Shown piece after piece: positions 3,001 to 19,082 of a DNA stretch of 20,000 nucleotides. Source of the DNA: an uncultured virus (IMG/VR IMGVR_UViG_3300008219_000006) (taxonomy: Duplodnaviria; Heunggongvirae; Uroviricota; Caudoviricetes). Under the pieces are notes generated by a model. The model did no database searches. It had not been told where the DNA came from and was given only the letters and a program-made list of their open reading frames with translations. The DNA lies in the IMG/VR virus record IMGVR_UViG_3300008219_000006, one strand, 5' to 3'. The stretch's first letter is position 1, and each line of letters opens with the position of its first letter. The position numbers were made by a program, and so were the translations under genes.

Positions 3001-6000
3001 TTGTAATGTTAGGAAATTACCATACCCATGAATATATAGATGGATTCTTTGTAACCTCTGAAGATTATTCAGGTCTTGATGAAGATTCCGAAATTGATAT
3101 TGATAAAGCAAGAGATATAATTAGTAGCTTTGGTGAATGGCGAAAGAATACTTTAGGTAAGCATGTTGGTATTCAATTACAAAACGCTACTTTGGCAAAT
3201 AGAAGACCAGAAGCGTTAAATAATTTATCAGATGGGCTGAAAACAGCAGTTAATATTGAAGAGTTTGGTCCTAATGATAAGCCATTAATAAACATAACAC
3301 CAGAACAAGCTAAGACAAATGCAAAATCAAGAAGGGTAGAAGTTAAAGATACTGCTGAAAGTATAGGACAACTAGGTCTTGATCTGTTAAAAGCAACCAA
3401 ATTACTATCTAATCTGAAGAGATTAAATGGTAGGTATAGTAATATCGGTCTTGTTGTAGCTCAACTAAAGCAAGCTGGTTTGGAAAACCTTAATTTTGAT
3501 CATCCTATTTTCCATACAGAACTTAGTCCGGTCATTCTAAAACATGCAGGAGATATAATGTATGATGCTAAGAATGAATTAGATCTTACAGAACTGTATC
3601 CTCTTGATATTACAATTGATGGTATTAAATCTGATGATTACTTGAATGTTATTGTAGATATTAATGAACTAGAGAATATTCTTACTGCTCTAGCTAGTCA
3701 AATAAATAACAAACTTCAGATTATGGTTAACGAGGGAATTAGGGGAGCCGATACACAGATCACTAATATGGATGAAGCTAGTCTTAATTTATATAAGCAA
3801 TATGAACTTGTTACTAGGCTTCATGAAGGACTGTTAGAACACATCTCAACAATGACTAATCCCTTGAGAAGGGGATGGGATAGAGATCTTGATAGTCAAT
3901 TCTTACAGCTTGGTGATACAACTTATGAAACAACTCCTCATGAATATCGTCAAACAGTTGAAAACTATTTTGCGAGAGGTCTTGGAGATATACAAAACAA
4001 AAGACTATGGGATGGATATAGAGATCTTTTTGAACAATATCTAATAACTAGAAAACCAGATCCCAAGAGTATAGACTTAGATATAAAAGAACTATATGAA
4101 CAAATTTTAAGGGATGAAGTAACCTTTGATCATAATAGTCAAATAACTCTTATGTACAAACTTGTTCAAGAAGTTTTAGGTATTGAGGATATAACTCAAC
4201 TAGGAGGACTTTCAGAAGGAAGTCGTTTGGCACTAGATTGGGTTTCGGCAGAAGAAGCTGGATTTGCTTTGGCTGATTTTATTTTCCGAAGAGAAGAAGT
4301 TTCCTTATATAGAAGAGTCGTTAAGAGAAAGAGTTCTTCAAAAACTGGCGAGGGTGAAATAACTAGTGAGCAGCAAATTACTGATAGCGAACAGGGAACA
4401 GAAACTGAATTACAAGCTAAATCAGTTAGAAGTGATATACCTTTGTCTGCTAGAAACCTAGCAAGAAATTGGGAAGAGTCTGTATATAGACATAGGATGA
4501 GAAAAAGTTTAGAGTATTTGACTACAGCAAGCGATGAGGAAGTTGAATTAGTTATTGCTAGTATTCGAGAAAGTGTTCCAAGTAAGGCAGAAGCTTATAA
4601 GAAGTATGCAGATGAAACAGGTAAGGATGTTAAAACTCTAACTGCTGAAGAAAAAACTAAAGCAATTAAAACTTTTTATCTTCCTGAGAAAGAGAAGGTA
4701 GCCAAGATGGCTACAACCTATTCATTCCTACCTCAGATGACAAATAGATCTCCCGGTGAAACAATTACTAACTTTGAACGATGGGAATCTTTTGTGTTTG
4801 AGGTTATGATGGATTGGCCTGTATTGGGAATGAATCTTATACATGATGGTAGATATTATACAGATGGTACTGTTGTTGAGTTTCTAGGAAAAGACGAATC
4901 ACATCAAAGGTATGCAGATGATAATGATCTTGATGTTGAAACTCTTACTGAAGATCAAATTAAAGAAGCCGAAAGAGTTTATCCTCCTGAGATGTTGCAC
5001 ATGAAACCTTCTACTGCTGCTAGAGGAACTAGAGCTCAGCGAAGTGAAGATAAAGTTCGTAAGGCAGCACATGCTGGTATGCCTATCGGTAAACTTACTT
5101 TAGCTGGATTCTTTACACAATGGGCTCATGGAAGACTTAATATTAACTTTGAAGAGTTTGCTAAATCTGCCTTAACTCTTGGCAATGAAACAGTAAAAAG
5201 TTTGGGAATCAATAATCTATTTAATTTTACATCAAGTAAAAACTATGCCGATCTTAATGCTGCTGGTATTCATTCACACTTTAGCGTATTAATGATGACA
5301 CCAAAAAACAGAGAGGCTGCTGAAGCTTTGTTGGATAAACTAGTAAACCAAAGAAACAAAGTTTTAGGAACTACTCCTGAAGATCAGTATCTTGAGGCTA
5401 GTGAGTTTGTATTAGAAACAGCTTTACATACATTAGAAATATCTGGATTGCATACAGATATTTTTCCGGGTATACAATCTTTAGAGAAGATTGCTGCTGA
5501 GTTTGATTTTGAAGGGGTTTTAAAAGATATTAAAGCTGGTAGAAAAAAAACTGCAAGAGTCGAAAAATTCAGAAAACTTATAAAGCACCCTATTATGGTT
5601 AAACTTTATTGGGCTGGACAAGAAGGTATTAAAAGTTCTTTTAGTGATGCAAAGGATGCGGGACTGCTTGAAGGATTTACTGAACAGGACTTAGATTGGT
5701 TTGCTCTCTTCTTAGCTCAAGGTGGTGCAGTTTTGCGACACAATCTACTTAACCATGCTCTTCAAAATAAAGACGGTAAGCCTACTAGCGATGTTCTTGG
5801 AGAATCTATGGGCGTTGATATGGGCGATAGACAAGAGGCTCTCAGGATATTAAAAGACTTAGCCAATCAAGAAACAGATGTTGTTAAAAATTATATGGAC
5901 CTGTATGGCAAACAAATTGAAGGCAGAGATACAAAAGCAAGAACTCTTGAAAAATCCTTAGAAGATTTTGTGAGTGCTAAAGCTTTATATCTTGCACAAG

Positions 6001-9000
6001 GAGATCTTGCTAGAGCAGAAGAACTTAAGCCTAAGATTAGAGCAGAACATAAAAAGAGAATTGAAAACCTACAAGAATATCTAAGAGAGAACGGACTAAA
6101 GGAAGAATCCTTAAATGATCCTGTAGTTATGAATCAACACAGAGGAGAAATTGAAAGAATAATGATGGGTTGGGAGGGAGATGCATGGAAAGAAATGCCA
6201 ATGCTTCGTGCTATTAATGAAAAGAATGCTCAACCTGTTACTCTAGCAATAGATGAAAAAACCAAAGCTGCTGGAAAACCAGCTGGTATTGATATGGATC
6301 ATGTTGGAGAACATTGGTTAATGGGTAGCCTATTAGATAAGTTTACCCTGTTCATAGAATATGGAATTGATACCTCATCGGGTCGATACAATCCTATGGA
6401 TCCAAGTCCTTTGACACCATATAACTCAACTCTTGGATCTTTCCGTAGTGATGAAAAACCATACTCTATCTGGAAAACAGAAAACAATAGATTTGCTAAG
6501 ATGGCTACTGATGAAGAGGGTAATTTAGATCCTAAAAAGATGAGGGCTTATATAAATAGATTGATTGCTATTGACTTATCTATAAGAATGATACAAGACT
6601 ATGATCCTCCAATTCCAAATTTTGAACCATATACAGAAAAAGATTTCTGGGCAGATTGGCAAACAGAGTCAGATCATACAGTAGCTTCTAGAGAAAGAGA
6701 AATCAATTTTTGGGAAGATCCAGAAAACAATGATTATGAAATATCTAAAGAAGAATTCAATAAGAATACATATGGTGGGACAAGAGATCATAGGTCTAGA
6801 CCATTGTTTGCTAGGCGTAATATAGATTATAAGAGTAATCAAGAAATGAGTACTAAAGATCCTGCTGGTATCGCGGCTTTACGTCCTAGAACAGGAAAGC
6901 CCGGAAACCTAATGCATGACAGAGGATCTATGTTTCTTAGGAAAGAATCTTTAAATAGAAAGCTGAGAGAGAAAGAACAAAGATTAGAACATCTTCGTAA
7001 TACAATAAATACTACTGAAATTGATACTAATATTATGTCTGATATTATTAGTGGAGCACATCCTTTCCAATCTGATACATTACCTGTAGGACCAACACCA
7101 GATACTACAACCCTTTCTCATGTCTTTGGAGATACTATAGATGAACAAGTATACAGAGCTATACGAAACATTGAAAATAAGATTCGTCCTTGGGCTATGG
7201 AACGTGGTTACTATAAAGAAGTAAAAGATAATAAATGGGGACGATTGTGGATTATGTGGGAGATGGATCGTCTTCATAAGAATACTATTAGAGAAACAAG
7301 ACAAATCCTAAAAAGTTTTCGTGGAGCTGATGTTTGGGATCAGAACGATATAGAAATAGGAATGCGACAGATAAGACTTTCTTATTACGATAAGCTTTAC
7401 AAACTTCGATCAGTTGTACATGAACTAAGAAGTAAAGGCTTTGATTCTAGAGAAGCTGATATTATGGAAAATCAACTTAGTGCTCATATCAATATGGATG
7501 ATATGACCTATATCGAACTAGCAAGAACTCTAGCAGATAGCGGATTTGCTCAGGATTCAAGAGTCTTTACTCCAGCTCCTCATCATTTAATGGCTATTGA
7601 TCCAGAAACAGCAGCAGATCCTGTAGAATTTACAAGAACTGTTGAAGGTCCCATTGCTATGCATCACTTAGAGCAAGCATTAGCTGAGCATGAAATAGTA
7701 TTTATAAGTTATGTAAACGAAGAATTAAATATATTGTCTAAAGAAGATACTGAATTAGGGAAATATCTAAGGGATAAAAGAGATACTTTTGAAAGCGGTC
7801 GCCATCTTAATTGGAAAGACCTTCAAAATATGATGTGGTCTGAAAACGAAACTGTTAATCAATGGGCAATGGATATTCTAGATAAGGCTGAAAAGAAAGC
7901 TATTAATGCAGAGCATAAGAATTTTTATATCTACTTAGATCCTGACAGTGAAACTAGATCTACGATGACTTATGATAGAAAAGAAGAAGGAAATGTAAAA
8001 AGACTTTGGGGTGGATGGAGTCCGTTGATTTCACAAAAACCTATTGGTAGTGCAAGGTATCATCTGACTCCAGAAGGATTGCAACAACTATTTGTTAATA
8101 TTCGGTCTACCTTATTCAAGAAATTAGAAGATAGACAAATTACTGGCATTAGTACTCTGCACTCTGAACCATCTTTGGCTCAACGATTAGACTCTGGTTA
8201 TCAAGCAGATACTAGAAGATCTCACGAAGCGTTGTTAAAGGCGTTTGAACTTATGGGTGATACTGAAGTCGGAGACTATACTCTTGTTGATAAATCAAGA
8301 AGAAGTTCTTTTGATGATAGAGAACCTCAAAGAGTTCTTGATATAGATAAACTTTCAGGTATGAAGATAGTAACTGGTAATAGATTTGATCATGCTTGGG
8401 ATAGAGCTTACTACTCTCAGTGGGAAGCAACTAAAGAAGCTGCTAGAAGGCAAGGTAAAACAAGGCTACTAGATTATTTAATAAATCAAGAAGAGCTAAA
8501 TCCTGAACTTGTAAAAATACATGCTATATCATTACATGCTGAAAACTTTATGGGACTTGGTACTGAAGAAGCAAGAATATATGCAGCTGCTATAACAAAC
8601 AAAGATGTTGATTGGGTTGATAAAAATACTTTGTTACTAGATAATCTACAACAAGAGATTAACAAGTGGGAATTTTCAGGTCCTTTAGAAAAAGCTATTA
8701 TGGAATTAGAACGGCATCATAGAAATACATCTACAGAAAATACTTTAGATAGAACTAATGTAGATAATTTAAGAAAGGTATTAAAAGTATTTGGTATGGA
8801 AGATTCTGCTATAGATGCTATGCCTGAATTCAAGGATTATAATAAATGGATGAATAACGGTTTATCGGTAGTTATTGATATTGAAACTGATATTGCTGAG
8901 GATGGTGTTCCAACAAAAATATATCGAGTAGTTAAACATTATTCTAGGAAAAATACAAAAGCTGGTTTTATTTCTGAAGTTGTAACAGGAGAAGATTTAA

Positions 9001-12000
9001 ACAGTATTCTCGTAGAAATAGAAAGAGCTCAGCAAGCTGGATATAAGGTTGTTACTTATAACGGCAATACTTTTGACTTTAAGCATCTAGTTAGGTTAGG
9101 AGCAGATCCTAAGATAGCTGCAAGAATTGCTACTAGAAGCATTGATTTGTATAGTCTCTTAAGAAGAATGAAAGCTAATCAAGATAGTCGTAAGGGAAGC
9201 TTAGGACGAATATCTGAACTACTTAATCTTGGTAAGAAAAAAGAAATTGGTGGATATATGGTTCACCTTTTGGAATTAAGGAAAAGTGGAAAGACTTTAG
9301 ATAAAACAGATTTACCTATAGCCTATAGAAATGATGAAATAGCTATTGATGAATTAAATAAAATTAATGATATGGATTCATCTGATCCATCTTTAGAAAC
9401 TCGTATTGTAAACTATACTCTTGAAGACGGTGTATTAACAAATAAACTATTTGCGGAGTTGTTAAAACGTCAAGGAGAAACTAATATTAGTCTTGGAGAA
9501 ATTGGAACTCTTGATTTAGTTACAGAACTGTATCCAAACTGGGCATTAGATATAGATGGAACTAGAGCTGTAACTAATAAAGATGCCTTTAAATGGATAG
9601 ATGATGTAGTTATTCCTAAGCTTATTGGTAAGGAAGAAGATACTTCTGACTTTGGATTGCATAACAAAGGGTTTGTGACTGAAACTGGGAGTAGATTTAG
9701 AGATCGAGCAGAGAGAGAAGCAAAAGAATTCTTTAGAAGAGGAAGGCTTTGGGCTGATAAGAGAGAATTCAATGAACAACGAGATAAACTAAACGGTAAG
9801 AACTACGATGCAATCGAGGTCTTGTCGTATCAAGACTTTATTAATGAGGTTTTAGGAGAATCAGTTACACTAACAGAAAATGATGGAAGACTAATGGCAG
9901 CTAAATATGCTATGGAAGCTATTATGGCTGAGCGTAAACCTACAGAACTTAATCTATTAGATTTAACTAGAGGTATAGATGAAGATGTAGATTTATCCGA
10001 TCTTGGGGATTCTAAAAAATTCGATCTTGTCTTTATACACAATGATGCTGCTCTTAAAATGAATAAAACATTATCTAGAGCAGAGAGAGATGGTACTCTT
10101 AAACCAGAAGTAGTAGTTGGGTTGAGAATAATGTTTGCTCATTTAGCTAGAATGAATCCAGACTTCTTTAGAACAGTCGAGTTTGAGATAGATCCTAGTG
10201 ATATATTCGATACTCAAGGAAGAAGGCAACGGGGTAGATTTGGTATTAAAGATAATAAATTCCATATGATTATAGATCCAAGAGAATCTACCGATGTTCA
10301 GATTGTTGAAATTGCTCTTCATGAAATCATAGGACATATGGGCGTTGAGAAGTTTGTTAGAAAGAATGAAGCTGATTGGGTAAGTATGGTTGAATGGCTA
10401 AGAACTGCTTCTGGTAGAAACGTAGTTGCAGACTTTGTAAAATCAAATCCAAAATATAGTCACTTAACTGAAGCAGAAAAGAATAAGAAAGTTGAATATT
10501 ACCAAACAAATCCTGAAGAATGGGCTGCTCTTTATATTTCTTATCAGCTTATGAAGGATGTTACTCATGATTCTATGATTGATATCAATAATCCTAAAAT
10601 TAATAGATCTCTAAGAGGCATGATTAATAAGATTGTGTCTTCAATAAGAAACCATCTTCAAACAATTACCGATGCTTTGTTTAGGTTTAGAAAGACATAT
10701 CCTCAAGCATATGAGATGATGGAACGAATTACAGAAAATGCTTATGGTTATCAAACAAAAGGTAATATAAGATATAGAAGAGAAGCACAAACTCCAAATC
10801 GAGTAGCAAACGATTATGAATCTACCCATGAAGGATCTGATACAGAAAACATGTATTCTTTTCTTAATCCCTTAGCCGGAGAACAGGGAGATAATGCTCT
10901 TACTCTTCATGCATTTGATAAAAATAGTGGGGTTAAGATGGGAACTCCTTTGAAGAAGGGAGAGCTTTCTGGACTAGCTAAGACAGAAGAAATTGAAACA
11001 TGGGTAAGAGAAGAAGAAAACGCTAGAAGAACTCGTATTGATTTAAGAAATGAATTAAATAATCTTACTATAGGTTCTGCTGAACACATCGCTAAACAAA
11101 TAGAGTTTGATAATGCTGCTAAAAAAGAAGGAGAAATATCTCAAAGAATAAGTGATAATGAATATAATAATCTTTTTGGACAATCAAGAAGAGAAGTAGC
11201 AGATAATAAAGTTGAATTAGCTAGAAGGTTTGGTGACGAACAAGTAGTTGATTATATGTTGGGTGATGAAGCTAATGGGTTTGTTATGAAACAACAACAA
11301 TACAACGCAGGTAAGCTAAGAGAGATAATGACTTCTAGTAAACAAGAAGATATTACATTAGCTAAAACATTCCTAGCTTTGTCTTTTGAAAATATGATTA
11401 AAAAGCGTGGAGACTATGTAAGAGAAAACGCAGAACGATGGTTATCTATGTTTCCTCATATATACATGAGATTAAACAGATTGGCAACAGGTGGTCTTGC
11501 TGGTCTTAATACTACTCAATCAGATCAAACATATTTAAATACCATTATTCCTATTGTTATCTTAAGTAATCTAGTTGTACCCGGACTTGAAAATGTTTCT
11601 GGTAATGTACAAAATACAAAGGGATGGGATAGTTTGGATGATAGGCGAAACGAGTTGTTTGATATAGAAGAAGCAGCTAGAGAGTATGATAAAGAATTTG
11701 TTAAGAATACTGTTGATGGTAAGACTATGACAGAAGTACAATTTGATCAAATAAAAGAACTATCTCTTTCTTTAATCAATGATCCATCTAGTGTCTCTTC
11801 CAGCCATCCTTTTTATGATTTAGCTAGAGAATATTCTAAGACATCTGAACAACTCATACAAAGAGCTACTGATTATCTTGTTAATGCCCGTGTATTACAA
11901 GAAAGACATTTAGAAAAACCAGAGCATAGACTTATGCTATCTTTAAACAAAACAAAAATAGGAGATCTTATATCTAAGAATCCAGATGTTATTACTCAAG

Positions 12001-14765
12001 CTAAGGATGAAATAAGAAGACAAGTTTTAGAAAATCTGTCTTTAACAGATACTTCATCTATTGTAGATCCTGTTTCTCTATATGCTTCTGGTATTCTACC
12101 TGACATAACATCAAGTGAAGTTAATCTTACTTTTATTAGAGGTTGGGATGATATGCCTTTGGTTATCAGAAATAAGATTGATCAAGAAATTAAAAACGAT
12201 CCTTCATTAATGACAATAACTGAATGGGATAGTGACATGCTTATGCTTGATACTAATCCTAGCTCTGAAGCTAAAGCTAGATTAAAGATATATAAAATTC
12301 GGAAACAAAAGGTTGAAGCATTATATAAGAAAGCAGATTACGGTGCTACTACTTTATCAGATATTATAGGATCTGGTACTTCTGCTGGAGAAGCAGCTTC
12401 TATCATATCACAATATAATTCTTCATTAGAAGCACACAATACTTCTTTAGTAGATAAGTTTAGAGCACATTCTGGAAGTTATCTGGCAACTATGATTCTT
12501 AGTGGAAATGGTTTAGCGAGAGATTCTGGTACTCATATGTTATTTACAAGTAAGGAAGCCAATAGTGTTGTTGGATTTAAATCATATCTTCTTATGAATA
12601 GAATTGGTTCTACTGCTTTTATTCCCCATTCAATTGTTGGAATACCTAAGTCTTATGAATTAATGACAAACGATAAAACAAAGATGTTGTTTAATACCGA
12701 TGTAGGTAGTATATCACGGGCTCTTACAAGAGGACCGGGATGGAATGCTGGAACAATTCTAGTAATGAAGGAATTTACTAATTCAAATATAAACTTTTCT
12801 GACTTTCTGGATATGTTTAGAAATGTTATTGATAACTCGCCTGATTTAGATAGTATTAATGTTATAGATCAGTCTGTTCTAAACCTTAGTACAAAAATGA
12901 GAACTGATCTTAAAAGCAAGATATTAGATGATATTGAAACTCTAAGAAGAAAGATGCAGATTACTGGTGGTATTGCACTTAGACAATATAATAGATGGAA
13001 TAGTGCAATTGATACTGCAAATGATTTTACTTCTACTTTGTTAGGACCAAACCTAACAGTAGCTACGCTAACTGTTGAAGGTATGATGAATACTACCTCT
13101 CTTATGTTTGGCGGTCCTCAAGGATTAAAGAACTTTGCAACTGCTGTGATTGATTCTATAGCATTTGCTTCTTCTGGTAGTACTAAAAAAGGACGTAGCC
13201 AAATGCGTCAGCTTGCTAGAGAAATGGGATGGTATGCAAAACATAAGAGACATAGTATGTTTGAAGTACACCGTTCTGTTCTTTATGGCGATGAACTCCA
13301 TGATGATGAAGTAGGTGGGCTTAAAAGATATCTTAGAAGAACTAAAACTTATTCTAATAGTGTAAACGGTGGTATTAATATTGCTCTTAGAAGTCAATCT
13401 ACTATGTCCTATAGAAAATGGTTTGCAGAAATTCTTGGAAATGATAAGCTTAAAGAATTAATTATTAAAGTAAATGATGCTAAAGAAAAAGGTGAGTTTA
13501 AAACTAGAGCAGATATTAAGAGGGTAGTAAAAGAAGTACTAGGTTCTTCTCATGGAAGAACTGAAGCTGTTTATCAAATGGCTAAAGCTGGTCTTTTAGA
13601 TCTTGATATTCTACCTGATATTAAAACTCTTATTGATGAATCTGATGTTGTATATGGTGTACATACTTATGGTGGTAGAATGAGAAACTACATAAGCGAA
13701 AAGACAGATACAGCAGAAAGAACAAGACTTAATGAGGTATTGCGGAAAATGAAGAATTGGGAAAATATCGTAGTACATATGAATATTGTTGATCCTAATG
13801 CTATGGATATTGATACAACGGATGTTCCTTTGTTTAGATGGTTAAGGCATTATAAGTCTTATCCAAATATCTTTGCTGCTCAAAGAGTTTTTAGAGATTC
13901 GTCTAAATATAGTTTACCAGCCTTTGTAGCTCGTATGTTCCGTTTCATGCTTCAGGAAATGATATATGCTATTATCACTATGCTAGCCGCCGGAATGTCA
14001 GCAGCTGTCTTAAAAGAAAGGTTTGAGAAAAACCCAATTAGTGAGATGACTGCACTCTTGCAAAGAAGTCCTATGTTAGGATACTGGGGAGAATTCATTG
14101 CTTCTACAGTAAGAACTATGCTATCAGCAGCCTCTGGAAAACTAGACGCTACTCCTTTGGCTAGAACTTTACTACCTGTAGGTGGTTCTCTTATGAGATC
14201 TCAATCTCAATCTTTGGTCAATGCTATTAGAGGTAATACTGATGGAGGAGACTGGGCAAACTATGCTCGTATGTTAACTCTAGCTCCTGTCCCAGTCCTT
14301 GGACAAATTGCAGGTAATCCATTTACTAGGATAGCTGTAAGTAGAACAATGGGTAAAGAGAAGTCAGCCAATAGTATGAGACAGAAGATGGGGGACAGAC
14401 TTGGGAAACCTAATGGTCGAGACAGCTTAAGAAATGGATTAGGTACGACCGTGGAACCCTCGGACTCAAGTCTATCCTCAAGAAATGTCTTCTTTACACC
14501 TGAGGAAAAGAACCTAAGTAATATCATGAAAGAACTATATCCAGATGCTATGAATTCACCATATGTTACAGATGTTGGTGTTTCTATAGATCCTGATGAT
14601 ATTAAAACTCCAGAAGCATCTCAAGTTATTCCTCAGTTACCTCCAAGAGATACTCCAGAGCCTAAGAGCAGTCGTGTCGATATTGCTAGTAAGAAACCTG
14701 ACCCGATCCAAGCTATTTCAGAGTCTTCAAAACCTATGGAGATACCTCCAGAATTAATTGAATAA
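3..14765 (+). CDS. Giant virion-ejected polyvalent protein, 5'-partial (>4915 aa), with RNAP-like, exonuclease, metallopeptidase and gp16-like regions
   Basis: Uninterrupted frame from base 3 (CGC AGT CTT CTC TAT TTG...) to TAA ending at 14765, so the true start lies upstream of the window. Motifs: YADLNAAGIHSHFSVLM and RKLIKHPIMVKLYWAG (single-subunit RNAP motifs A and B); VIDIET / YNGNTFD / YTLED (Exo I-III); HEIIGH...PEEW (zincin). No Cys seen on reading the translation. Confidence 0.9.
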   Translation, partial: RSLLYLETGVKTTEQILDVIMPTRWASFVGTKLGYVDNLTFSEKMSDALHFRKAAFTRRLKLAPFDALEGFIEGSIVHIADANERGANWTLGSMIQEGGIEAVVSIGLNPTMRAAMQGGSGLLGAGAQLTNKFVSKNNDPVITDLMNRASRIVFRPRSLEEQMEAVDKYDKFIEFGSRYKNIFGEYSHAERIEAGEAKYLFPTDPKRANRERNFLDSLFDTVQLLAQAQNVENQTSWTLNKMDEILSMLEKKVKDEKRPSMGIKEAAELSIKSLIGSIDAVVKADPDFDINLANNLKNMIASEYKTFLLLDIARNHVDPITGEKKELTIEEVIEKIDPTKDEFDVNLWFKTFTEAERELLNDEMDRRGLKLEDITDDPKLTQEIVEKVTEDWMGRTEDTRRLEDDAQKKRIEHASALSDFLEQPITIQDIRTGETIVVGGDRYTGTPLTIDEAIKKKNDTADEVESEPEIDEEEVEITELTPREQRIIRNSQERLQKGLEAYKKAKTPKEKKSALKQIANAVWKTEGRLNKITKERAGKEIIDLQNESQGILTKENIEIGPDKAGDPMDFNRVDTEVSDIKGETADTSENFVILQVKQPVIRQGNERLQYAKVVLTPAEKFTPEPIDAPQTIVPTEPPAEPKKKTKSQRRKLLEKANDAEAVAEGSFEKISEDRKEMLIDVNNIDIELAQLKAQLDQMSDEFYETEEGKKIKEIADKQAKLNEKRNELLREMGFESRTHSVDGSSLKSVKEAIISFAKEDIESEKNRLKEIEKDTNILENTKRVLAKKLGKDATDNDKQELLKQKRSILLKFLTNKRNNDTVAGIAKAAEIPVEFIKALKNNEVVSLEEFDRILSNTKIQSYLTGIIKDVKKYGTLEADVVKNNIEKANERITNAGTLASKWMENVKSGRKNLHELGKAQRAASKVHKYQEMTELRAKIANVSLAKGTSVARLADIQPDFDNLVELAYIKQVISDTKASKRDLKQRMKGKRTITKADLKIVMLGNYHTHEYIDGFFVTSEDYSGLDEDSEIDIDKARDIISSFGEWRKNTLGKHVGIQLQNATLANRRPEALNNLSDGLKTAVNIEEFGPNDKPLINITPEQAKTNAKSRRVEVKDTAESIGQLGLDLLKATKLLSNLKRLNGRYSNIGLVVAQLKQAGLENLNFDHPIFHTELSPVILKHAGDIMYDAKNELDLTELYPLDITIDGIKSDDYLNVIVDINELENILTALASQINNKLQIMVNEGIRGADTQITNMDEASLNLYKQYELVTRLHEGLLEHISTMTNPLRRGWDRDLDSQFLQLGDTTYETTPHEYRQTVENYFARGLGDIQNKRLWDGYRDLFEQYLITRKPDPKSIDLDIKELYEQILRDEVTFDHNSQITLMYKLVQEVLGIEDITQLGGLSEGSRLALDWVSAEEAGFALADFIFRREEVSLYRRVVKRKSSSKTGEGEITSEQQITDSEQGTETELQAKSVRSDIPLSARNLARNWEESVYRHRMRKSLEYLTTASDEEVELVIASIRESVPSKAEAYKKYADETGKDVKTLTAEEKTKAIKTFYLPEKEKVAKMATTYSFLPQMTNRSPGETITNFERWESFVFEVMMDWPVLGMNLIHDGRYYTDGTVVEFLGKDESHQRYADDNDLDVETLTEDQIKEAERVYPPEMLHMKPSTAARGTRAQRSEDKVRKAAHAGMPIGKLTLAGFFTQWAHGRLNINFEEFAKSALTLGNETVKSLGINNLFNFTSSKNYADLNAAGIHSHFSVLMMTPKNREAAEALLDKLVNQRNKVLGTTPEDQYLEASEFVLETALHTLEISGLHTDIFPGIQSLEKIAAEFDFEGVLKDIKAGRKKTARVEKFRKLIKHPIMVKLYWAGQEGIKSSFSDAKDAGLLEGFTEQDLDWFALFLAQGGAVLRHNLLNHALQNKDGKPTSDVLGESMGVDMGDRQEALRILKDLANQETDVVKNYMDLYGKQIEGRDTKARTLEKSLEDFVSAKALYLAQGDLARAEELKPKIRAEHKKRIENLQEYLRENGLKEESLNDPVVMNQHRGEIERIMMGWEGDAWKEMPMLRAINEKNAQPVTLAIDEKTKAAGKPAGIDMDHVGEHWLMGSLLDKFTLFIEYGIDTSSGRYNPMDPSPLTPYNSTLGSFRSDEKPYSIWKTENNRFAKMATDEEGNLDPKKMRAYINRLIAIDLSIRMIQDYDPPIPNFEPYTEKDFWADWQTESDHTVASREREINFWEDPENNDYEISKEEFNKNTYGGTRDHRSRPLFARRNIDYKSNQEMSTKDPAGIAALRPRTGKPGNLMHDRGSMFLRKESLNRKLREKEQRLEHLRNTINTTEIDTNIMSDIISGAHPFQSDTLPVGPTPDTTTLSHVFGDTIDEQVYRAIRNIENKIRPWAMERGYYKEVKDNKWGRLWIMWEMDRLHKNTIRETRQILKSFRGADVWDQNDIEIGMRQIRLSYYDKLYKLRSVVHELRSKGFDSREADIMENQLSAHINMDDMTYIELARTLADSGFAQDSRVFTPAPHHLMAIDPETAADPVEFTRTVEGPIAMHHLEQALAEHEIVFISYVNEELNILSKEDTELGKYLRDKRDTFESGRHLNWKDLQNMMWSENETVNQWAMDILDKAEKKAINAEHKNFYIYLDPDSETRSTMTYDRKEEGNVKRLWGGWSPLISQKPIGSARYHLTPEGLQQLFVNIRSTLFKKLEDRQITGISTLHSEPSLAQRLDSGYQADTRRSHEALLKAFELMGDTEVGDYTLVDKSRRSSFDDREPQRVLDIDKLSGMKIVTGNRFDHAWDRAYYSQWEATKEAARRQGKTRLLDYLINQEELNPELVKIHAISLHAENFMGLGTEEARIYAAAITNKDVDWVDKNTLLLDNLQQEINKWEFSGPLEKAIMELERHHRNTSTENTLDRTNVDNLRKVLKVFGMEDSAIDAMPEFKDYNKWMNNGLSVVIDIETDIAEDGVPTKIYRVVKHYSRKNTKAGFISEVVTGEDLNSILVEIERAQQAGYKVVTYNGNTFDFKHLVRLGADPKIAARIATRSIDLYSLLRRMKANQDSRKGSLGRISELLNLGKKKEIGGYMVHLLELRKSGKTLDKTDLPIAYRNDEIAIDELNKINDMDSSDPSLETRIVNYTLEDGVLTNKLFAELLKRQGETNISLGEIGTLDLVTELYPNWALDIDGTRAVTNKDAFKWIDDVVIPKLIGKEEDTSDFGLHNKGFVTETGSRFRDRAEREAKEFFRRGRLWADKREFNEQRDKLNGKNYDAIEVLSYQDFINEVLGESVTLTENDGRLMAAKYAMEAIMAERKPTELNLLDLTRGIDEDVDLSDLGDSKKFDLVFIHNDAALKMNKTLSRAERDGTLKPEVVVGLRIMFAHLARMNPDFFRTVEFEIDPSDIFDTQGRRQRGRFGIKDNKFHMIIDPRESTDVQIVEIALHEIIGHMGVEKFVRKNEADWVSMVEWLRTASGRNVVADFVKSNPKYSHLTEAEKNKKVEYYQTNPEEWAALYISYQLMKDVTHDSMIDINNPKINRSLRGMINKIVSSIRNHLQTITDALFRFRKTYPQAYEMMERITENAYGYQTKGNIRYRREAQTPNRVANDYESTHEGSDTENMYSFLNPLAGEQGDNALTLHAFDKNSGVKMGTPLKKGELSGLAKTEEIETWVREEENARRTRIDLRNELNNLTIGSAEHIAKQIEFDNAAKKEGEISQRISDNEYNNLFGQSRREVADNKVELARRFGDEQVVDYMLGDEANGFVMKQQQYNAGKLREIMTSSKQEDITLAKTFLALSFENMIKKRGDYVRENAERWLSMFPHIYMRLNRLATGGLAGLNTTQSDQTYLNTIIPIVILSNLVVPGLENVSGNVQNTKGWDSLDDRRNELFDIEEAAREYDKEFVKNTVDGKTMTEVQFDQIKELSLSLINDPSSVSSSHPFYDLAREYSKTSEQLIQRATDYLVNARVLQERHLEKPEHRLMLSLNKTKIGDLISKNPDVITQAKDEIRRQVLENLSLTDTSSIVDPVSLYASGILPDITSSEVNLTFIRGWDDMPLVIRNKIDQEIKNDPSLMTITEWDSDMLMLDTNPSSEAKARLKIYKIRKQKVEALYKKADYGATTLSDIIGSGTSAGEAASIISQYNSSLEAHNTSLVDKFRAHSGSYLATMILSGNGLARDSGTHMLFTSKEANSVVGFKSYLLMNRIGSTAFIPHSIVGIPKSYELMTNDKTKMLFNTDVGSISRALTRGPGWNAGTILVMKEFTNSNINFSDFLDMFRNVIDNSPDLDSINVIDQSVLNLSTKMRTDLKSKILDDIETLRRKMQITGGIALRQYNRWNSAIDTANDFTSTLLGPNLTVATLTVEGMMNTTSLMFGGPQGLKNFATAVIDSIAFASSGSTKKGRSQMRQLAREMGWYAKHKRHSMFEVHRSVLYGDELHDDEVGGLKRYLRRTKTYSNSVNGGINIALRSQSTMSYRKWFAEILGNDKLKELIIKVNDAKEKGEFKTRADIKRVVKEVLGSSHGRTEAVYQMAKAGLLDLDILPDIKTLIDESDVVYGVHTYGGRMRNYISEKTDTAERTRLNEVLRKMKNWENIVVHMNIVDPNAMDIDTTDVPLFRWLRHYKSYPNIFAAQRVFRDSSKYSLPAFVARMFRFMLQEMIYAIITMLAAGMSAAVLKERFEKNPISEMTALLQRSPMLGYWGEFIASTVRTMLSAASGKLDATPLARTLLPVGGSLMRSQSQSLVNAIRGNTDGGDWANYARMLTLAPVPVLGQIAGNPFTRIAVSRTMGKEKSANSMRQKMGDRLGKPNGRDSLRNGLGTTVEPSDSSLSSRNVFFTPEEKNLSNIMKELYPDAMNSPYVTDVGVSIDPDDIKTPEASQVIPQLPPRDTPEPKSSRVDIASKKPDPIQAISESSKPMEIPPELIE
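1545..1856 (+). other. GrpE-like domain within the giant protein
   Basis: Helical segment ending ...QGILTKENIEIGPDKAGDPMD...FVILQVKQPVIRQGNERLQYAKVVLT resembles the GrpE C-terminal pattern (GV..I...G.PFDP...V..V.Q.GY...GR.LR.A.V.V). By-eye match only. Confidence 0.45.
4830..5640 (+). other. T7/N4-type single-subunit RNA polymerase core within the giant protein (DxxGR-like motif, motif A, motif B)
   Basis: In the correct order: IHDGRYY (~4842), D-LNAAGIHSHFSVLM (Asp codon 5250; cf. T7 DGSCSGIQHFSAML), DQY (5382; cf. T7 DIY) and R-x3-K-x3-M-x3-Y-x2-G (5571-5618; cf. T7 RSVTKRSVMTLAYG). Motif C not confidently identified. Confidence 0.7.
8862..9465 (+). other. DEDDy (DnaQ-like, RNase H fold) 3'-5' exonuclease domain within the giant protein
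   Basis: ExoI VVIDIET (D 8877, E 8883), ExoII VTYNGNTFD (9057-9077), the typical SIDLY...SLGRISELLNLGKK segment, and ExoIII NYTLED (9414-9428). Confidence 0.85.
10200..10560 (+). other. Zincin-like metallopeptidase (MPTase-type) domain within the giant protein
   Basis: RGRF...MIID...IALHEIIGHMG (HE at 10320-10325, H at 10335) with a downstream PEEWAA (10512-10529), the pattern of metallopeptidases found in phage polyvalent proteins. Confidence 0.75.
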
Positions 14766-14780: not shown

Positions 14781-14885
14781 GGGGGACCTAGGGACCTAGG
14801 TTTATATTATATATATAATATATAACTAGGGTAAACTAAGGACCTAGGAAATCGACTAGGGGTCACGAATACACAGCTAGGGAGA
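14781..14885. repeat. Cluster of CTAGG/CCTAGG short repeats around a perfect 20-bp AT palindrome; candidate genome end or replication origin
   Basis: TATATTATATATATAATATA (14803-14822) is its own reverse complement and is flanked by CCTAGG/CTAGG. About seven CTAGG/CTAAGG copies occur in ~100 bp, followed by CCCCCCGTACCCCCC and GGGGTACC. Confidence 0.6.
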
Positions 14886-15280: not shown

Positions 15281-15538
15281 ACAGCATCTGCTGCATGATC
15301 CATTGGAGGTTGGTCTGCCAATGGCGGGGTTGTTGAACCCGATACCTTGTCACTCAAGGGGTTCACTGTGGCTCATTCACATCTGATGAGGAGTGTCGTT
15401 GCTCTCCAGCGACAATCTCTAGGACACTTAGATCCTAAGCATCTACCTGATGATCATTTCGATAAGAGATAATTCTTATACCCTGAGCTAGCTAGGGTTG
15501 TACAGCTAGCAATCATGTTTCCTTTGAAAGGACATGCC

Positions 15539-15883: not shown

Positions 15884-15893
15884 GAGTGAACCT

Positions 15894-15927
15894 ATGGCAC
15901 TACAGGCTACCGCTTGTAGTGTCATTT
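15894..15927 (+). terminator. 14-bp RNA hairpin with TACC loop; terminator or RNase III-type processing site
   Basis: ATGGCACTACAGGC-TACC-GCTTGTAGTGTCAT with two G.U pairs, 10 nt after the stop codon; only a short T run follows. Confidence 0.5.
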
Positions 15928-15987
15928 GCCCTAGGTTAGTCGGGGCTGCAAAGTGACTAACTGAGTTCTTCCATAGGAGGCACTGCG

Positions 15988-16191
15988 ATAGCAGAACCTA
16001 CTAAGAAGTCCGAAGCTATTGAGCGTTTGTTTCGTGAACTCAATGGTGGCGTGGACAGGCGTACTATGATCGACTCCGATCTGTGTGCGGTCTGTGCTCA
16101 GCCAGCTACTGAGTTCAGCGACGCGCTCAGCCGCAAGGAATACACCATCTCTGGTATGTGTCAAGCATGCCAAGATAGTGTGTTCCGCTAG
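15988..16191 (+). CDS. Small CxxC...CxxC zinc-finger protein (67 aa), not in the ORF track; probable ATA start
   Basis: AGGAGG (15975-15980) + 7 nt + ATA GCA GAA CCT gives (M)AEPTKKSEAIERLFRELNGGVDRRTMIDSDLCAVCAQPATEFSDALSRKEYTISGMCQACQDSVFR*. In-frame TAA at 15958; first in-frame ATG only at 16066. Confidence 0.8.
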   Translation: MAEPTKKSEAIERLFRELNGGVDRRTMIDSDLCAVCAQPATEFSDALSRKEYTISGMCQACQDSVFR

Positions 16192-16244
16192 CGGTTAGCG
16201 TCGGAACAACGTCCCTCCGCCTGAGGTTTCGCCCTAGGGAGGGG

Positions 16245-16287
16245 CTTCATACCTGTGCTCTTCTCTATGGAGAGCACGGGTATGAGG
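16245..16287 (+). promoter_or_regulatory. 19-bp intergenic RNA hairpin, candidate RNase III site upstream of the RNAP gene
   Basis: CTTCATACCTGTGCTCTTC-TCTAT-GGAGAGCACGGGTATGAGG; the non-Watson-Crick positions are G.U pairs on the + strand. Confidence 0.5.
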
Positions 16288-16511
16288 TACACGTTGTATC
16301 TCGTTCGACCTAAGCATGTCGTTAAAGGGCTTATGCTGATTCTTCCAAGGAAGAGTAGACTCAGGAGACGAGTCCGACTGAGGGCGTGATTCTCAAGGGG
16401 TTTTTAAACCGACAGGTTTTTGATCCTATTGCACTTGTTGTGCATTCCTTTACTCTCTGGGATAAAGAGAGGAACCCTTTACTACTTTCGAGTAGTATAA
16501 AGGAGATAATT

Positions 16512-18305
16512 ATGAAGAAATTCATAGTTATGCTTGAGGCTCTGCCCAAGCGTTATCGGGAACCTCTGGTCGCCTTCGGGTTGACTAAGTTCATCACCCT
16601 TCGTATTCAGCTACGTAGGGACAACCGCAGTATCCATCAGATCATTGATCAGATGCGAGAACAGGTTGGTCTGTCTAACTTTGGTTACTCTTTGAGTCTT
16701 GATGACTTGAAGAAGGCCGAGTTGGCGATTTGCGCTGGTGATGCCGTACTTCCTTCGACTGATCGTATGGAGGGGTACGTTTTGGAATCACCGCACGTAG
16801 TTGGTCGGGACGATTCAAGGCGATCCGTCATGAGTCGTAACGGTAATGCTCAAGTTCCTAAGCGTGTGACGAACGCACTTAACTATCTCGGTAGTGTGGG
16901 TTTTGATATCCACCCTGAGATGGAGCACCTTCTTCTGGATAATAAGGAGAAGTGGTTGTGCGATCAGACCAAGCCGTTGTATCTTGAGCTGGAGCGAATT
17001 GAGGATTGGGATAAGTTCTTCCTAACCTCCTACCTCGATTGGAGAGGTCGCTTCTACGCAGGTTCTGGTATCCTGTCTTATCAAGGAGATGCCACTAATC
17101 GTGGGTTGGTCTGCTTTGCAGATCCATCTCCTTTCTCCGATAAGCAATGGGATTCCATTCGTACTTTCCTTCGTGGAGAGTATGGTGTCGCTCCCGATGT
17201 TCTCTCGTTTGCTTCTGAGGACTATACTCTTAAGCAACAGGCAGGATGGCTAGCACAAACAGATCGCACATTTGCCGAGCGATATATTGTGCAGCTCGAT
17301 ACCCACAGTTCTGGTCCACTTATGGTGGCTCTCATGATGAGAGACGAGCGTTTGTTGCGTGTCATCCTAACTTCAGACTTTTATATGGCGTTCCTTAAGC
17401 CGTATATGGAGTCTGGCACATCTTGGGCCAAGAGGCTGAGTGCTATATCTGAGGACGAAACTAGAGATCAGGTTGCTAAGCCCTGTGGTATTAACACCAT
17501 GTATGGGACAGCGGCTGATGCTCTGGCATATTCGTATGCAGGATTGACAATCAACGGTGTTACGCCTGAGATGTCTATCCTTGATTCTGGCAGCAAAAGT
17601 GATCCTAAGCCCGGTTTGGTGTCACTCCTTGAAACTGGAGTGGTTCTTGAATCGAATCTATCTTGGGAGATCCAACCCTGTCTTCGTCCTTACTTGATGA
17701 GTCTGTCCGTTTCTGAACGGTTACGACAGCTCTGCTACCTCGCAAGAGATATGCAGAACGCACTCTTCAGTGAGTTTCCCTCCATTAGGGTTTATCTCAA
17801 CACACTCTCTGGTGCTGCTAATAGCTGGTGGAAGAATACGCAAACTTCTTTCAGTTTCCAGCACCCTCTTGATAAGAATATCATCATCAAGCCTTTCCCG
17901 CACAAGCGTACTGATGTGCCTGTAAAGGATTATATTGATATTCGTGTCCTTTCCAAACGGCTCCGTAGGAACTTGTGTCCAATGGAGTTTGGTCGAGGTC
18001 GAGTCTCTGCGTGTGCGCCTTGCTTCACACACATGATTGATGCCGTGATCGTGACCCTTGTGGTTAACGAGTGCGAGCGAATGGATATTCCTATCGCTCC
18101 TATACACGACTCCTTCGGTGTGCCGATAGCTTATGTTGATGTTGTTAAAGACATCTTCAAGCAAGTCGTGATCTGGATGTTCACTGAGAATGATTATCTA
18201 GGTGACTTCTGCAAGGCTCATGACAAGACCCTCCCTGAGCGGTCTAGTCTTTCCGAGTTTGACATTGAAAGTCTGCTCGATGAGCTTCCATCCTGTATAG
18301 GGTGA
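16512..18305 (+). CDS. Compact T7/T3-type single-subunit DNA-directed RNA polymerase (597 aa)
   Basis: AAGGAG SD before ATG 16512. YLDWRGRFY (Asp 17037), QGDATNRGLVCFA, motif A QLDTHSSGPLMVALMMRDE (Asp 17298), DFY, motif B RDQVAKPCGINTMYG (17463-17507), APCFTHMIDA (cf. T7 APNFVHSQDG), motif C IHDSFG (18102-18119). Confidence 0.93.
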   Translation: MKKFIVMLEALPKRYREPLVAFGLTKFITLRIQLRRDNRSIHQIIDQMREQVGLSNFGYSLSLDDLKKAELAICAGDAVLPSTDRMEGYVLESPHVVGRDDSRRSVMSRNGNAQVPKRVTNALNYLGSVGFDIHPEMEHLLLDNKEKWLCDQTKPLYLELERIEDWDKFFLTSYLDWRGRFYAGSGILSYQGDATNRGLVCFADPSPFSDKQWDSIRTFLRGEYGVAPDVLSFASEDYTLKQQAGWLAQTDRTFAERYIVQLDTHSSGPLMVALMMRDERLLRVILTSDFYMAFLKPYMESGTSWAKRLSAISEDETRDQVAKPCGINTMYGTAADALAYSYAGLTINGVTPEMSILDSGSKSDPKPGLVSLLETGVVLESNLSWEIQPCLRPYLMSLSVSERLRQLCYLARDMQNALFSEFPSIRVYLNTLSGAANSWWKNTQTSFSFQHPLDKNIIIKPFPHKRTDVPVKDYIDIRVLSKRLRRNLCPMEFGRGRVSACAPCFTHMIDAVIVTLVVNECERMDIPIAPIHDSFGVPIAYVDVVKDIFKQVVIWMFTENDYLGDFCKAHDKTLPERSSLSEFDIESLLDELPSCIG

Positions 18306-18310
18306 AGCCC

Positions 18311-18346
18311 AGCCCTCTCTACCTTAGCGGGTAGGGAGGTGCTTTT
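18311..18346 (+). terminator. Rho-independent terminator after the RNAP gene
   Basis: CCTCTCTACCT-TAGC-GGGTAGGGAGG followed by TGCTTTT, just after the TGA ending at 18305. Confidence 0.65.
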
Positions 18347-18396
18347 GCTCACAGAACGTCTGTGAGTGTCTTTGTCCCTTTTCTTAGGAGGTTGCT

Positions 18397-18843
18397 ATGA
18401 AAAGCAACAAATCAATCCTTCTTAAAAGTCAAGAAGGATATTCAATGGTGTGCTTCACTATCAAGCCATCCTCGAACATGGTAACGGTTACCAAGACGCG
18501 AAAGCCCTTGGTTACCATCCCATTGTTTGATCTGGCTAGCCGTGTGAAGGAGGAACTCTCCCTTGGTTTCAAGATTGAGGAAGTTCCGTCTAGTCTGCGG
18601 CACTTTGAGGCTGACACCATTAACTACCAGTACGATATCGAGGGTATGGTAACGATGTGGGCTAATATAGAAGAGATTCTATGTAATTCTCTCATATCTT
18701 CCTATACTCTTGGGGTCAAGGGTGGTGACTTTGGGTTAGCTAAGAAAGCTTTCTTTGATACTTTCAATGCACATCACAAAGGCTCTAAGACTCTTCGTAT
18801 TCGTAGTGGATTAGCTGACGCTCGCTATACGCGGATCAGTTGA
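18397..18843 (+). CDS. Hypothetical protein (148 aa)
   Basis: Strong SD AGGAGG(T) just upstream of ATG 18397; followed by a hairpin. No motif recognised. Confidence 0.85.
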   Translation: MKSNKSILLKSQEGYSMVCFTIKPSSNMVTVTKTRKPLVTIPLFDLASRVKEELSLGFKIEEVPSSLRHFEADTINYQYDIEGMVTMWANIEEILCNSLISSYTLGVKGGDFGLAKKAFFDTFNAHHKGSKTLRIRSGLADARYTRIS

Positions 18844-18849
18844 TCTCAG

Positions 18850-18883
18850 GGGCTTACACCTCTTACCAGAGGGTAGGTCCTTT
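18850..18883 (+). terminator. Terminator-like hairpin with TACC loop
   Basis: GGGCTTAC-A-CCTCT-TACC-AGAGG-GTAGGTCC followed by TTT, just after the stop at 18843. Confidence 0.55.
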
Positions 18884-18887
18884 CCAG

Positions 18888-19082
18888 TCTCGCCTTCGGC
18901 GGGAACAACCTTCGGTTTCAACCTTCGGTTCAACCTTCGGTTCAACCCTTCGTACTACCGGAACTTCGTACCTGATTCCCTTCGGGCTCCATTCTCCGGC
19001 CCTTCGTGCCTCTCAGGCTTCGCCTCAGGGCTTTCAGCCCCTCGGAGGTCCTTCGGACCCCCCTAGGAACGCTTCGCTTAGG
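18888..19082 (-). repeat. Array of about 11 mini-hairpins with TTC (+ strand) / GAA (- strand) triloops, including three tandem CAACCTTCGGTT copies
   Basis: CGCC-TTC-GGCG, AACC-TTC-GGTT x3, GGAAC-TTC-GTACC, CCC-TTC-GGG, GGCCC-TTC-GTGCC, AGGC-TTC-GCCT, GGGCT-TTC-AGCCC, GGTCC-TTC-GGACC, GC-TTC-GC. Confidence 0.85.

Follow-up and report, generated by a model that had tools for sequence, protein, structure and literature searches.

The 20,000-nucleotide (nt) stretch of the uncultured virus record IMGVR_UViG_3300008219_000006 (IMG/VR), referred to as the window in the following, covers the junction of the last late gene with the early region of an uncultured marine phage of about 68 kb, most readily explained as a podophage, and encodes, with all genes on the + strand, a giant multidomain protein and a compact single-chain RNA polymerase (RNAP), followed by an array of small triloop hairpins. 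The giant protein very probably contains a diverged single-subunit polymerase core of the T7/N4 type with putative activity, as judged from alignments, profile comparisons and structural models. While the preliminary description of this DNA had proposed a two-polymerase phage, a canonical T7-like RNAP of 829 amino acids (aa) is encoded 5.8 kb past the window end, and the phage carries three polymerase modules, not two. The overall explanation that we favour, with some reserve, is a T7-like phage which combines a giant protein with an N4-like core, a compact RNAP and a canonical RNAP in a hybrid of the N4 and T7 transcription programmes.

The giant protein gene (3..14765, +) is open at its 5' end and represents the 3' 93% of an open reading frame (ORF) for 5306 aa, of which the first 386 residues lie outside the window; the whole protein (P0004; the window part, P0001, provides the residue numbers used below) was located by identity on a contig of 67,988 nt, in agreement with the more than 4900 aa initially reported. 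Family searches of the window's giant against Pfam, PHROG and PDB sequences gave nothing but an RNase H-fold/DEDD domain at aa 2958-3087, and the RNAP-like region (aa ~1570-2364; 4710..7094, +) emerged from jackhmmer and MAFFT alignments among giants, hhalign and the ESM Atlas. The iterated profile search (jackhmmer) with 19 giants aligned 17 of them over aa ~1685-2364, with the exception of G004 and G007. Apart from conserved motif residues, the 16 orthologous giants share 16-41% identity over the 880-aa region, and a conservation of at least 80% across the 16 non-duplicate rows is reached solely by D1750, G1755, K1861, Y1869, G1872, R2128, G2289 and P2295. Similarly, in the MAFFT alignment A3 of the 16 regions G1692, D1750, K1861, Y1869 and R2128 are invariant, with D1615, G1755, G1872 and P2295 among the near-invariant positions.

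These residues define a motif A of the general pattern D-x4-G (D1750-x4-G1755; 5250..5267, +), with the Asp in 16/16 and the Gly in 15/16 sequences, and a motif B of the pattern [RK]xxxK-x7-Y..G (R1857-x3-K1861-x7-Y1869-x2-G1872; 5571..5618, +), with Lys and Tyr in all 16. On these alignments, the motif A Asp and the motif B Lys and Tyr are essentially all that selection has kept in proteins which are 16-19% identical to the window's. In family-A DNA polymerases the fifth residue after the motif A Asp is the Glu 'steric gate'; the Gly found at this place in 15 of the 16 giants, and likewise in N4 gp50 and the T7-like RNAPs checked, therefore argues for an RNA polymerase over a DNA polymerase. 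The motif strings of the preliminary description are present where they had been placed, namely 'HDGRYY' at nt 4842, motif A 'ADLNAAGIHSHF' at nt 5247 and motif B 'RKLIKHPIMVKLYWAG' at nt 5571. The assignment of 'HDGR' as the T/DxxGR motif has to be abandoned, as G-R (1616-1617) occurs only in the window's phage and G002, while the conserved part is an h-[HQ]-D block (I1613-H1614-D1615; 4839..4847, +; Asp in at least 90% of the 16 sequences), exemplified among the giants as h-[HQ]-D-[SACG] by SSIHDS and AVVHDS. This block is the signature of a T7-type motif C, yet it stands 135 aa before motif A, where T/DxxGR is expected. Conversely, R2128 (6384..6386, +), invariant in the orthologue alignments, belongs to a [DET]xxxGR-like block 267 aa after K1861, roughly at the position of motif C in N4.

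The putative relationship with the N4 virion RNAP (vRNAP) was examined residue by residue. The N4 gp50 sequence, read directly, shows TRVGR (R1421), EADGVTNG (D1556), RGIAKNPLTITIYG (K1667, Y1675) and IFDG (D1948), equivalent to R424, D559, K670, Y678 and D951 in mini-vRNAP numbering. The spacing D1615-D1750-K1861 amounts to 135 and 111 aa, exactly as R424-D559-K670 in N4. When a single giant sequence was aligned by hhalign with nine N4-like vRNAPs, the one local match was exactly motif B (P 0.017). With the alignment of the giants, the single match comprised aa 1735-1880 against mini-vRNAP 546-689 and placed D1750 on D559 and R1857/K1861/Y1869 on R666/K670/Y678 (P 0.0013, probability 18%), with P 0.75 and 0.13 for reversed-template controls; alignment A3 with greedy extension covered aa 1541-2340 against 265-1104 (P 0.00053, probability 31%), of which only motif B is placed reliably. 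A hidden Markov model (HMM) from the nine N4-like vRNAPs gave a 5-bit local match on motif B only. The ten best matches of a feature search of the ESM Atlas were all N4 vRNAP or PF00940 clusters (score 0.90), which the tool rates as a lead only. When the 16 regions were scanned singly against Pfam, solely sub-threshold matches were obtained, to N4_RNAP_helical in 2/16 (PF21894, E 0.0094), which tied for the top with DUF7222, and to RNA_pol in 1/16 (E 0.021).

Structural modelling points in the same direction for the fingers. A single-sequence AlphaFold2 (AF2) model of the region was unusable, with a predicted local distance difference test (pLDDT) score of 39. With alignment A3 the pLDDT was 52.5, confident around model residues 260-380 and of low confidence in the palm part. 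In a comparison of the A3 model with 48,161 PDB chains, T7 RNAP (3e2e_A) ranks first with Z 7.8 and a root-mean-square deviation of 2.6 A over 91 residues, whereby model residues 255-368 (aa 1794-1907, which hold motif B) superpose on T7 RNAP 569-684, the fingers with the motif B helix, and the rows that follow have Z of 5.1 or less and are coiled coils. We give weight to this match because its identity and place had been predicted beforehand. For the polymerase fold initially proposed for this region, a match is seen in the fingers part; Foldseek of the A3 model against PDB returned nothing at E <=0.001, and the palm is of low confidence.

A number of observations weigh against a polymerase core in the giant. 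No Pfam, PHROG or PDB sequence search matched the giant to any RNAP; the hhalign probabilities against the N4-like proteins are only 18-31%; hhalign of the giants against the alignment A2 of T7-like RNAPs gave no match (P 0.38), and neither N4 gp50 nor the phage's own RNAP gave a significant BLASTP match with the region. Both AF2 models are of poor quality, the Foldseek result is blank, and the structure search tool itself cautions that a best Z of 7-8 is common without a true match. In G006 a Ser replaces the motif A Gly, and no conserved motif C Asp is found downstream of motif B in the alignments of the 16 giants, so that polymerase activity of the giant is unproven. Neither 'GIDMD' (2096) nor 'LMHD' (2303) was retained as a candidate for motif C, as positions 2097 and 2306 vary among the giants. 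The motifs might accordingly be an inactive relic, or part of a helical domain with a different function, for instance the binding of DNA or RNA upon ejection, which would leave the phage with two working T7-family RNAPs. Such a reading draws on the missing motif C, the lack of a family-level match, the low profile probabilities, the low confidence of the palm in the AF2 models and the Ser of G006, but D, K and Y would hardly stay the sole invariant residues across proteins of 16-19% identity, and the conserved h-H-D block is a candidate second carboxylate; we consider it improbable. The missing motif C can mean either that the alignments are too weak or that the palm elements are arranged differently. 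In a diverged polymerase core, as we prefer to read the region, the active site of the presumably ejected enzyme may be rearranged, with the motif-C-like h-H-D before motif A and the GR block after motif B. To our knowledge, such a motif order has so far been described only in some viral RNA-dependent polymerases.

Neither the Pfam vRNAP families PF21867, PF21894 and PF21624 nor the gp50 sequence matched the window's giant, and a word-based search recovered only the protein itself. An exhaustive HMMER search of aa 1350-2500 against 1.84 billion representatives retrieved one 364-aa protein only (P0005), a free-standing protein which resembles aa 2173-2475. This match suggests that the segment downstream of the polymerase motifs is a separable domain.

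The second module, a compact single-chain T7-family RNAP of 597 aa counted from ATG (16512..18305, +), can be assigned with less effort: unlike the giant, it aligns with known T7-type RNAPs at the sequence level. It matches PF00940 (E 1.8e-10; 40.7 bits vs a cut-off of 22) and phrog_414 (E 2.7e-26) and possesses all four catalytic motifs, D176-W-R-G-R180, D263, K323/Y331-G332 and H532-D533, which are invariant with its sole close relative P0003 (57% identity). The initial designation of the gene as a minimal T7-type RNAP is confirmed by the above-cut-off PF00940 match and the catalytically complete motif set. As DWRGR is preceded by 175 aa in the compact RNAP and by 408 in the canonical enzyme, the former has ~233 fewer residues in the region which binds the promoter in T7 RNAP, and PF14700, the N-terminal promoter-binding domain, which in its full form takes up about 410 aa ahead of T/DxxGR, was not matched by the 597-aa protein. 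By this comparison of motif positions, the compact RNAP is an enzyme with a full-size catalytic core which lacks ~230 residues of the N-terminal promoter-binding domain. Two terminator-like hairpins from the terminator scan follow the gene (18314..18368, +).

The third module, the canonical RNAP on the overlapping IMG/VR record G001, is matched over its full length by phrog_414 (E 2.3e-156) and by PF00940 (E 9.3e-84), with the DWRGR equivalent at 409-413, D525, K596/Y604 and H754-D755. G001 also encodes a DUF932 protein, a metallophosphoesterase, a gp2.5-like single-stranded DNA-binding protein (SSB), RusA, a T7 gp4-like primase-helicase, PolA, a deoxynucleoside monophosphate (dNMP) kinase and an exonuclease, whereby the genes for SSB, primase-helicase, PolA and exonuclease come after that of the canonical RNAP. 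Among deposited phages (50,697 records) the canonical RNAP is at most 29% identical to anything, while PolA has ~40% identity with its best matches, T7-like pelagiphages and Mediterranean fosmid phages; no deposited phage was matched by the window in a megablast search.

The arrangement is not unique to this phage, but the common layout of a large uncultured marine lineage. Relatives of the canonical RNAP number 262 at E <=1e-10, with 50-79% identity and on contigs of up to 71 kb; 222 IMG/VR stretches encode one, 80 of which were retained. Genomes of the lineage measure 64-70 kb. In all five whole records fetched (64-68 kb) the large ORFs lie on one strand in a shared order, structural genes, a 1400-2150-aa ORF, a giant ORF of 3808-5694 aa at the equivalent genomic place, a 595-705-aa ORF in a GC-rich segment, a ~330-aa ORF, an RNAP of 812-846 aa and replication genes; 12 of 15 further records hold an open frame of 4040-5565 aa which matches the C-terminal part of the giant. 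Of the compact ORFs of the whole genomes, four of five match PF00940 (3e-12 to 3e-49), that of G006 being without a match, and a 594-715-aa ORF occupies the GC-rich segment in 13 of 16 inspected loci. A tblastn search of 81 loci, many of which stop short of the region upstream of the canonical RNAP, found full-length relatives of 20-26% identity there in L023, L026, L029, L034, L036, L064 and L065 and partial matches in L056 and L079. The motif A Asp, motif B Lys/Tyr and motif C His-Asp are kept in 12 of 13 compact paralogues (595-715 aa), and the compact RNAP is thus, as far as conserved motifs can tell, a feature of the lineage. The compact paralogues are 14-25% identical to the window's, whereas the canonical RNAPs across the lineage are 51-79% identical to this phage's own, and so the compact enzyme evolves much faster. 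Accordingly, of the three elements of the initial proposal, giant and compact RNAP recur together in the lineage, while the hairpin array is confined to this phage and its nearest relative.

A chimeric assembly of a low-GC genome with one of higher GC, a concern raised at the outset for the two halves of the window, could be suspected from the GC content, which is 0.32-0.36 across the giant gene and 0.45-0.50 from ~14.8 kb to the window end and rises from 0.33 to 0.48 within ~1 kb at ~14.8 kb. However, G001 (24,138 nt) overlaps window positions 11067-20000 with 2 mismatches in 8934 nt and extends 15 kb further, and among JGI contigs L016 spans 11030-20000 and L015 15289-20000; three other contigs in all pass the step at 99.9% identity or more, among them G001 and L016 at 99.94-99.98%. 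Logan contigs of two further runs, which are not flagged as a possible source of the record, bridge it as well (X7, 13500-15411; X8, 14357-19018), and the GC rise at the homologous place together with the gene order is also found in the relatives G002/L018 and in five of five whole genomes. A chimera has in consequence a negligible likelihood. The early island with the compact RNAP (window 14800-20000) lies 8-20 GC points above the rest of each genome, 0.48 vs 0.33 here and up to 0.58 in relatives, as seen in L018, G002-G006 and 13 of 16 loci inspected.

Beyond the compact RNAP gene, a dense triloop array had been noted about 600 bp downstream. Indeed, six perfect hairpins with stems of at least 4 bp (4-5 bp) and a c-TTC-g loop, at 18895, 18911, 18924, 18936, 19019 and 19052, lie within an array (18891..19064, no strand assigned) that begins 590 nt after the RNAP stop codon and also holds a 3-bp hairpin at 18981 and several imperfect ones; three of the array hairpins are tandem 12-13-nt AACCTTCGGTT units. 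A scan of both strands found no perfect cTTCg hairpin elsewhere in the 20 kb, and 1000 dinucleotide-preserving shuffles of 14800-20000 gave a mean of 0.094 and a maximum of 2. On the template strand all six perfect hairpins read c-GAA-g. The coding strands of the N4 promoters, as checked in sequence, are GTTGC-TTC-GCAAC for P1 and AAGAAGC-TCC-GCTTCTT for P2. According to PMC4496689, a 5' G and 3' A of the loop and a C:G closing pair are needed for extrusion of the N4 hairpin, and vRNAP reads the promoter at -11, -10, -8 and +1. In loop and closing pair, the array hairpins correspond to N4 P1. In the nearest relative, G002/L018, whose small RNAP is 56% identical, the equivalent place is occupied by three cTTCg hairpins and one cGAAg hairpin with different stems, which are four of the five such hairpins in the whole G002 genome; the retention of loop and closing pair while the stems change speaks for selection on the structure. 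Possibly one of the two non-canonical polymerases recognizes the array as DNA hairpins, which is the weakest step of the overall explanation.

Several features are at odds with such a promoter role. The array lies downstream of the compact RNAP gene and thus cannot drive it; its units, 12-16 nt apart in one block of ~160 nt, are too close for independent N4-type promoters; only one of the six hairpins has the equivalent of the N4 -8G (TTCGC); the stems have 4-5 bp as compared with 5-7 bp in the N4 type, and the single block contrasts with the dispersed promoters ahead of early genes in N4. G003-G006 are without a hairpin cluster, and the copy number varies, as run X6 lacks one 12-nt unit. A GC hairpin with T-runs (19103-19150), located 3' of the array in a conserved noncoding segment (19101..19224, +; 78% nt identity with the relative), has in the relative a 3' arm that ends in T and not C, which results in a G-T pair. 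The array could instead act at the RNA level as stable C-UUC-G or CUUCGG-type hairpins at the 3' untranslated end of an early transcript of compact RNAP and ORF148, for exonuclease protection, as a termination or processing region, or as a tolerated variable tandem repeat, and we take this set of readings as a serious possibility, if somewhat short of an even one. CUUCGG hairpins are known in intergenic regions of phage T4. In line with this, all genes and the six TTC loops share the coding strand; the array is situated after the ORF that ends at 18843 and before the conserved GC hairpin with T-runs, the G-T pair of which is tolerated in RNA and weaker in DNA; hairpin 1 grows from 4 to 6 pairs only with a + strand U-G pair, the RNA fold drawing 7; copy number differs between samples; and isolated, terminator-like cTTCg hairpins directly follow the compact RNAP gene in G012 and G014. 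The + and - strands, however, fold equally well as RNA (z -3.9 vs -3.8), the stems are symmetric around a 3-nt loop so that a fully paired stem precludes the extra-stable UUCG tetraloop, and no Rfam family was matched. Compared with a promoter, a role in the RNA, to stabilise its 3' end or as a terminator region, has at least the same likelihood. As to the variation itself, it concerns the 12-nt unit CAACCTTCGGTT (18917-18947), of which run X6 has one copy less; a similar repeat in unrelated context is present on a second contig of that run.

A further conserved element marks the boundary between late and early genes. The sequence AATCGACT(T)AGGGG(G)TC..GAAwwT of ~35 nt (14846..14882, +) stands at or overlaps the stop of the giant in 14 highly diverged genomes, after the giant gene in G002, G004-G008, G010-G014, G017, G019 and G020, and also at L017 9690-9728; the window composite and every whole genome with the element hold a single copy, on the coding strand, and in some genomes the TAG of the element is the stop codon of the giant. 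Exceptions are G003, which is without it, G007, the copy of which is not beside the ORF taken as the giant, and G006, with an extra one-mismatch match elsewhere. In many genomes a C-rich box (CCCCCCGTACCCC) ~50 nt after the element can pair with the GGGGTA box. The element is a candidate terminator, early promoter or (concatemer-)junction site. Just after the stop of the giant lies an AT-rich perfect palindrome with 18-nt arms, no spacer and flanking CCTAGG (14795..14830, no strand), which is kept in the relative L017 and at which the Logan contigs of run X6 break. Of nine CTAGGG words in 35 kb, seven fall in the early island.

The array or the element at 14846-14882 could mark a physical end of the genome, a junction of concatemers or an origin of replication and not a transcription signal. 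In four relatives (G010, G011, G012, G014) the linear contigs stop 3.7-5.9 kb past the giant gene and begin 4.8-6 kb ahead of the canonical RNAP, in the homologous region between the compact RNAP and the early genes that follow it, and three of the four have repeated or overlapping ends; in G014 the repeat of 273 nt with 98.5% identity starts ~600 nt after its compact RNAP gene, and in 14 genomes the element is single-copy exactly between late and early genes. In T7, arrays of short repeats stand beside the terminal repeats. Against this, contigs of this phage from X6, X7 and X12 run through the array unbroken, although contigs cannot show molecule ends, as does the G002 contig through its own array, and the 'direct terminal repeats' of IMG/VR may be assembly overlaps; we regard a genome end as an unlikely explanation. 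The repeated ends in relatives could represent either a genuine terminal repeat or a hypervariable region.

As first supposed, neither the plan of T7 nor that of N4 describes the phage, in which T7-like modules coexist with a giant that has a putative N4-like core and with a compact RNAP. Both this phage and N4 have a very large protein with an internal, highly diverged core of (here predicted) T7-type, with 111 aa between motifs A and B and the profile alignment on D559/R666/K670/Y678; both have in the early region an N-terminally reduced second T7-family RNAP of ~600-700 aa, and small hairpins whose loop reads c-GAA-g on the template strand, like that of N4 P1, occur in both. The size of the compact RNAP is close to that of N4 RNAPII, in which gp16 has 404 aa and the gp15 chain in PDB 269 aa. 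Yet the giant with 5306 aa and exonuclease-like and HExxH modules differs from the 3500 aa of N4 gp50, no Pfam vRNAP family matches it, and T/DxxGR and motif C are not recognizable in it. The second RNAP is one chain here and two (gp15 and gp16) in N4, the third polymerase is the phage's own canonical T7-like enzyme as opposed to the host RNAP, the replication genes are T7-like, with a PolA 40% identical to T7-like pelagiphages, and a tight array of 4-5-bp stems contrasts with three dispersed promoters with 5-7-bp stems. With a single-chain second RNAP and replication genes that match T7-type PHROGs, the phage departs from the hallmarks of the Schitoviridae. Structures of the N4 mini-vRNAP are at hand for comparison (PDB 2PO4, 3C3L; PMC4496689). 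With T7 RNAP (PDB 3e2e), the likeness of the giant's model consists in residues 255-368 on the T7 fingers and the difference in a match of 91 residues only, with a low-confidence palm.

With the Autographiviridae the phage shares genes on one strand, the canonical RNAP, gp2.5-like SSB, gp4-like primase-helicase, PolA and exonuclease, and T7-like portal, scaffold, capsid and tubular tail genes. Autographiviridae have genomes of ~37-45 kb and one RNAP gene. The genomes here are larger with 64-70 kb vs about 40 kb, and carry two PF00940 genes in addition to the giant's putative core, a high-GC early island and a giant gene that comes after the terminase; no deposited phage RNAP exceeds 29% identity with the canonical RNAP. 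A cryptic RNAP in a giant, presumably ejected protein of uncultured-dominated marine and gut podophages is also found in crAss-like phages (phi14:2 gp66). That virion RNAP is of the two-barrel type and not T7/Pol-A, and nothing here points to the two-barrel type. An undescribed lineage, as initially suggested, is consistent with a literature search in which no description was found, bioRxiv supplements and subscription journals being outside the search, while the arrangement itself is not this phage's alone. Poorviridae was rejected as a description of the lineage, being a different phage of 48.9 kb (PMC11654794).

The size of the giant, its place beside structural genes and the analogy with N4 gp50 lead us to infer its location in the virion. 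In the hybrid programme, the giant would be packaged and ejected as N4 gp50 is and would make the first, host-independent transcripts, the array possibly providing a DNA-hairpin recognition site for a non-canonical polymerase, before compact RNAP and then canonical RNAP would take over in turn. Two points count against this scheme. The temporal order of polymerase use is pure inference; and in the relative G003, where T7-like genes for portal, scaffold, major capsid protein, tubular-tail protein and large terminase are followed by a ~2150-aa ORF and the giant, the giant gene stands after the terminase gene and not in the position of T7 gp14-16. In its widest form, the proposal would be that the lineage runs the whole infection on three successive single-subunit phage RNAPs, an ejected protein of 4000-5700 aa, a fast-evolving compact and a canonical enzyme, and would stand as a living intermediate between the strategies of N4 and T7, the active site of the ejected polymerase maybe being rearranged; we put this forward tentatively and consider it rather doubtful.

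If the overall reading holds, host-independent early transcription by an injected T7-type polymerase would not be confined to N4-like phages, and T7-like phages of an abundant oceanic group would have it in a cryptic form, which would link the two classic phage families with single-subunit RNAPs and provide a setting in which to study the origin of minimal enzymes of the N4 RNAPII type. One genome would offer three very different small polymerases, with a natural series of orthologues, for enzymology and biotechnology. As standard annotation finds no polymerase in the giants, similar enzymes have probably been missed in viromes.

Besides the putative core, the giant protein holds further modules. 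A DEDD (DnaQ/RNase H-fold) exonuclease-like domain (8868..9263, +; PF13482, E 7.6e-6, 26.4 bits vs a cut-off of 22) has D2959, E2961, D3025 and D3048 kept in the 10 giants aligned there, to which the giants of 4040-4183 aa do not belong. A metalloprotease-like HExxH...E motif (H3440-E3441-xx-H3444/5, E3506; 10320..10520, +), recognized by conservation with no Pfam family, has E3441 in 15/15, H3445 in 14/15 and E3506 in 15/15 giants. Alignments among the giants show a shared N-terminal block and a conserved C-terminal module with hydrophobic stretches (12969..14138, +); for the injection and the 'gp16-like end' supposed in the preliminary description, no family, PHROG or PDB sequence match speaks.

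Downstream of the giant gene follow small ORFs, the 597-aa ORF, a 148-aa ORF (18397..18843, +) with no family match, the CTTCG-rich noncoding stretch and two small overlapping early ORFs of 74 and 103 aa from the ORF list (19459..19940, +). A sigma-70 promoter scan gave no excess (7 vs 6.5 in shuffles), and Rfam and tRNA scans of the early region returned nothing credible. Among the small early ORFs, a Cys-rich one of 54 aa (16027..16191, +) matches phrog_19722 (E 4.9e-8). The word (G)AATAATTGGGTAA(AG) occurs at three gene boundaries, the stop of the giant (14760-14775), the start of the canonical RNAP and the end of the exonuclease gene, the latter two outside the window at composite positions 24058 and 35136 (G001 12992 and 24070).

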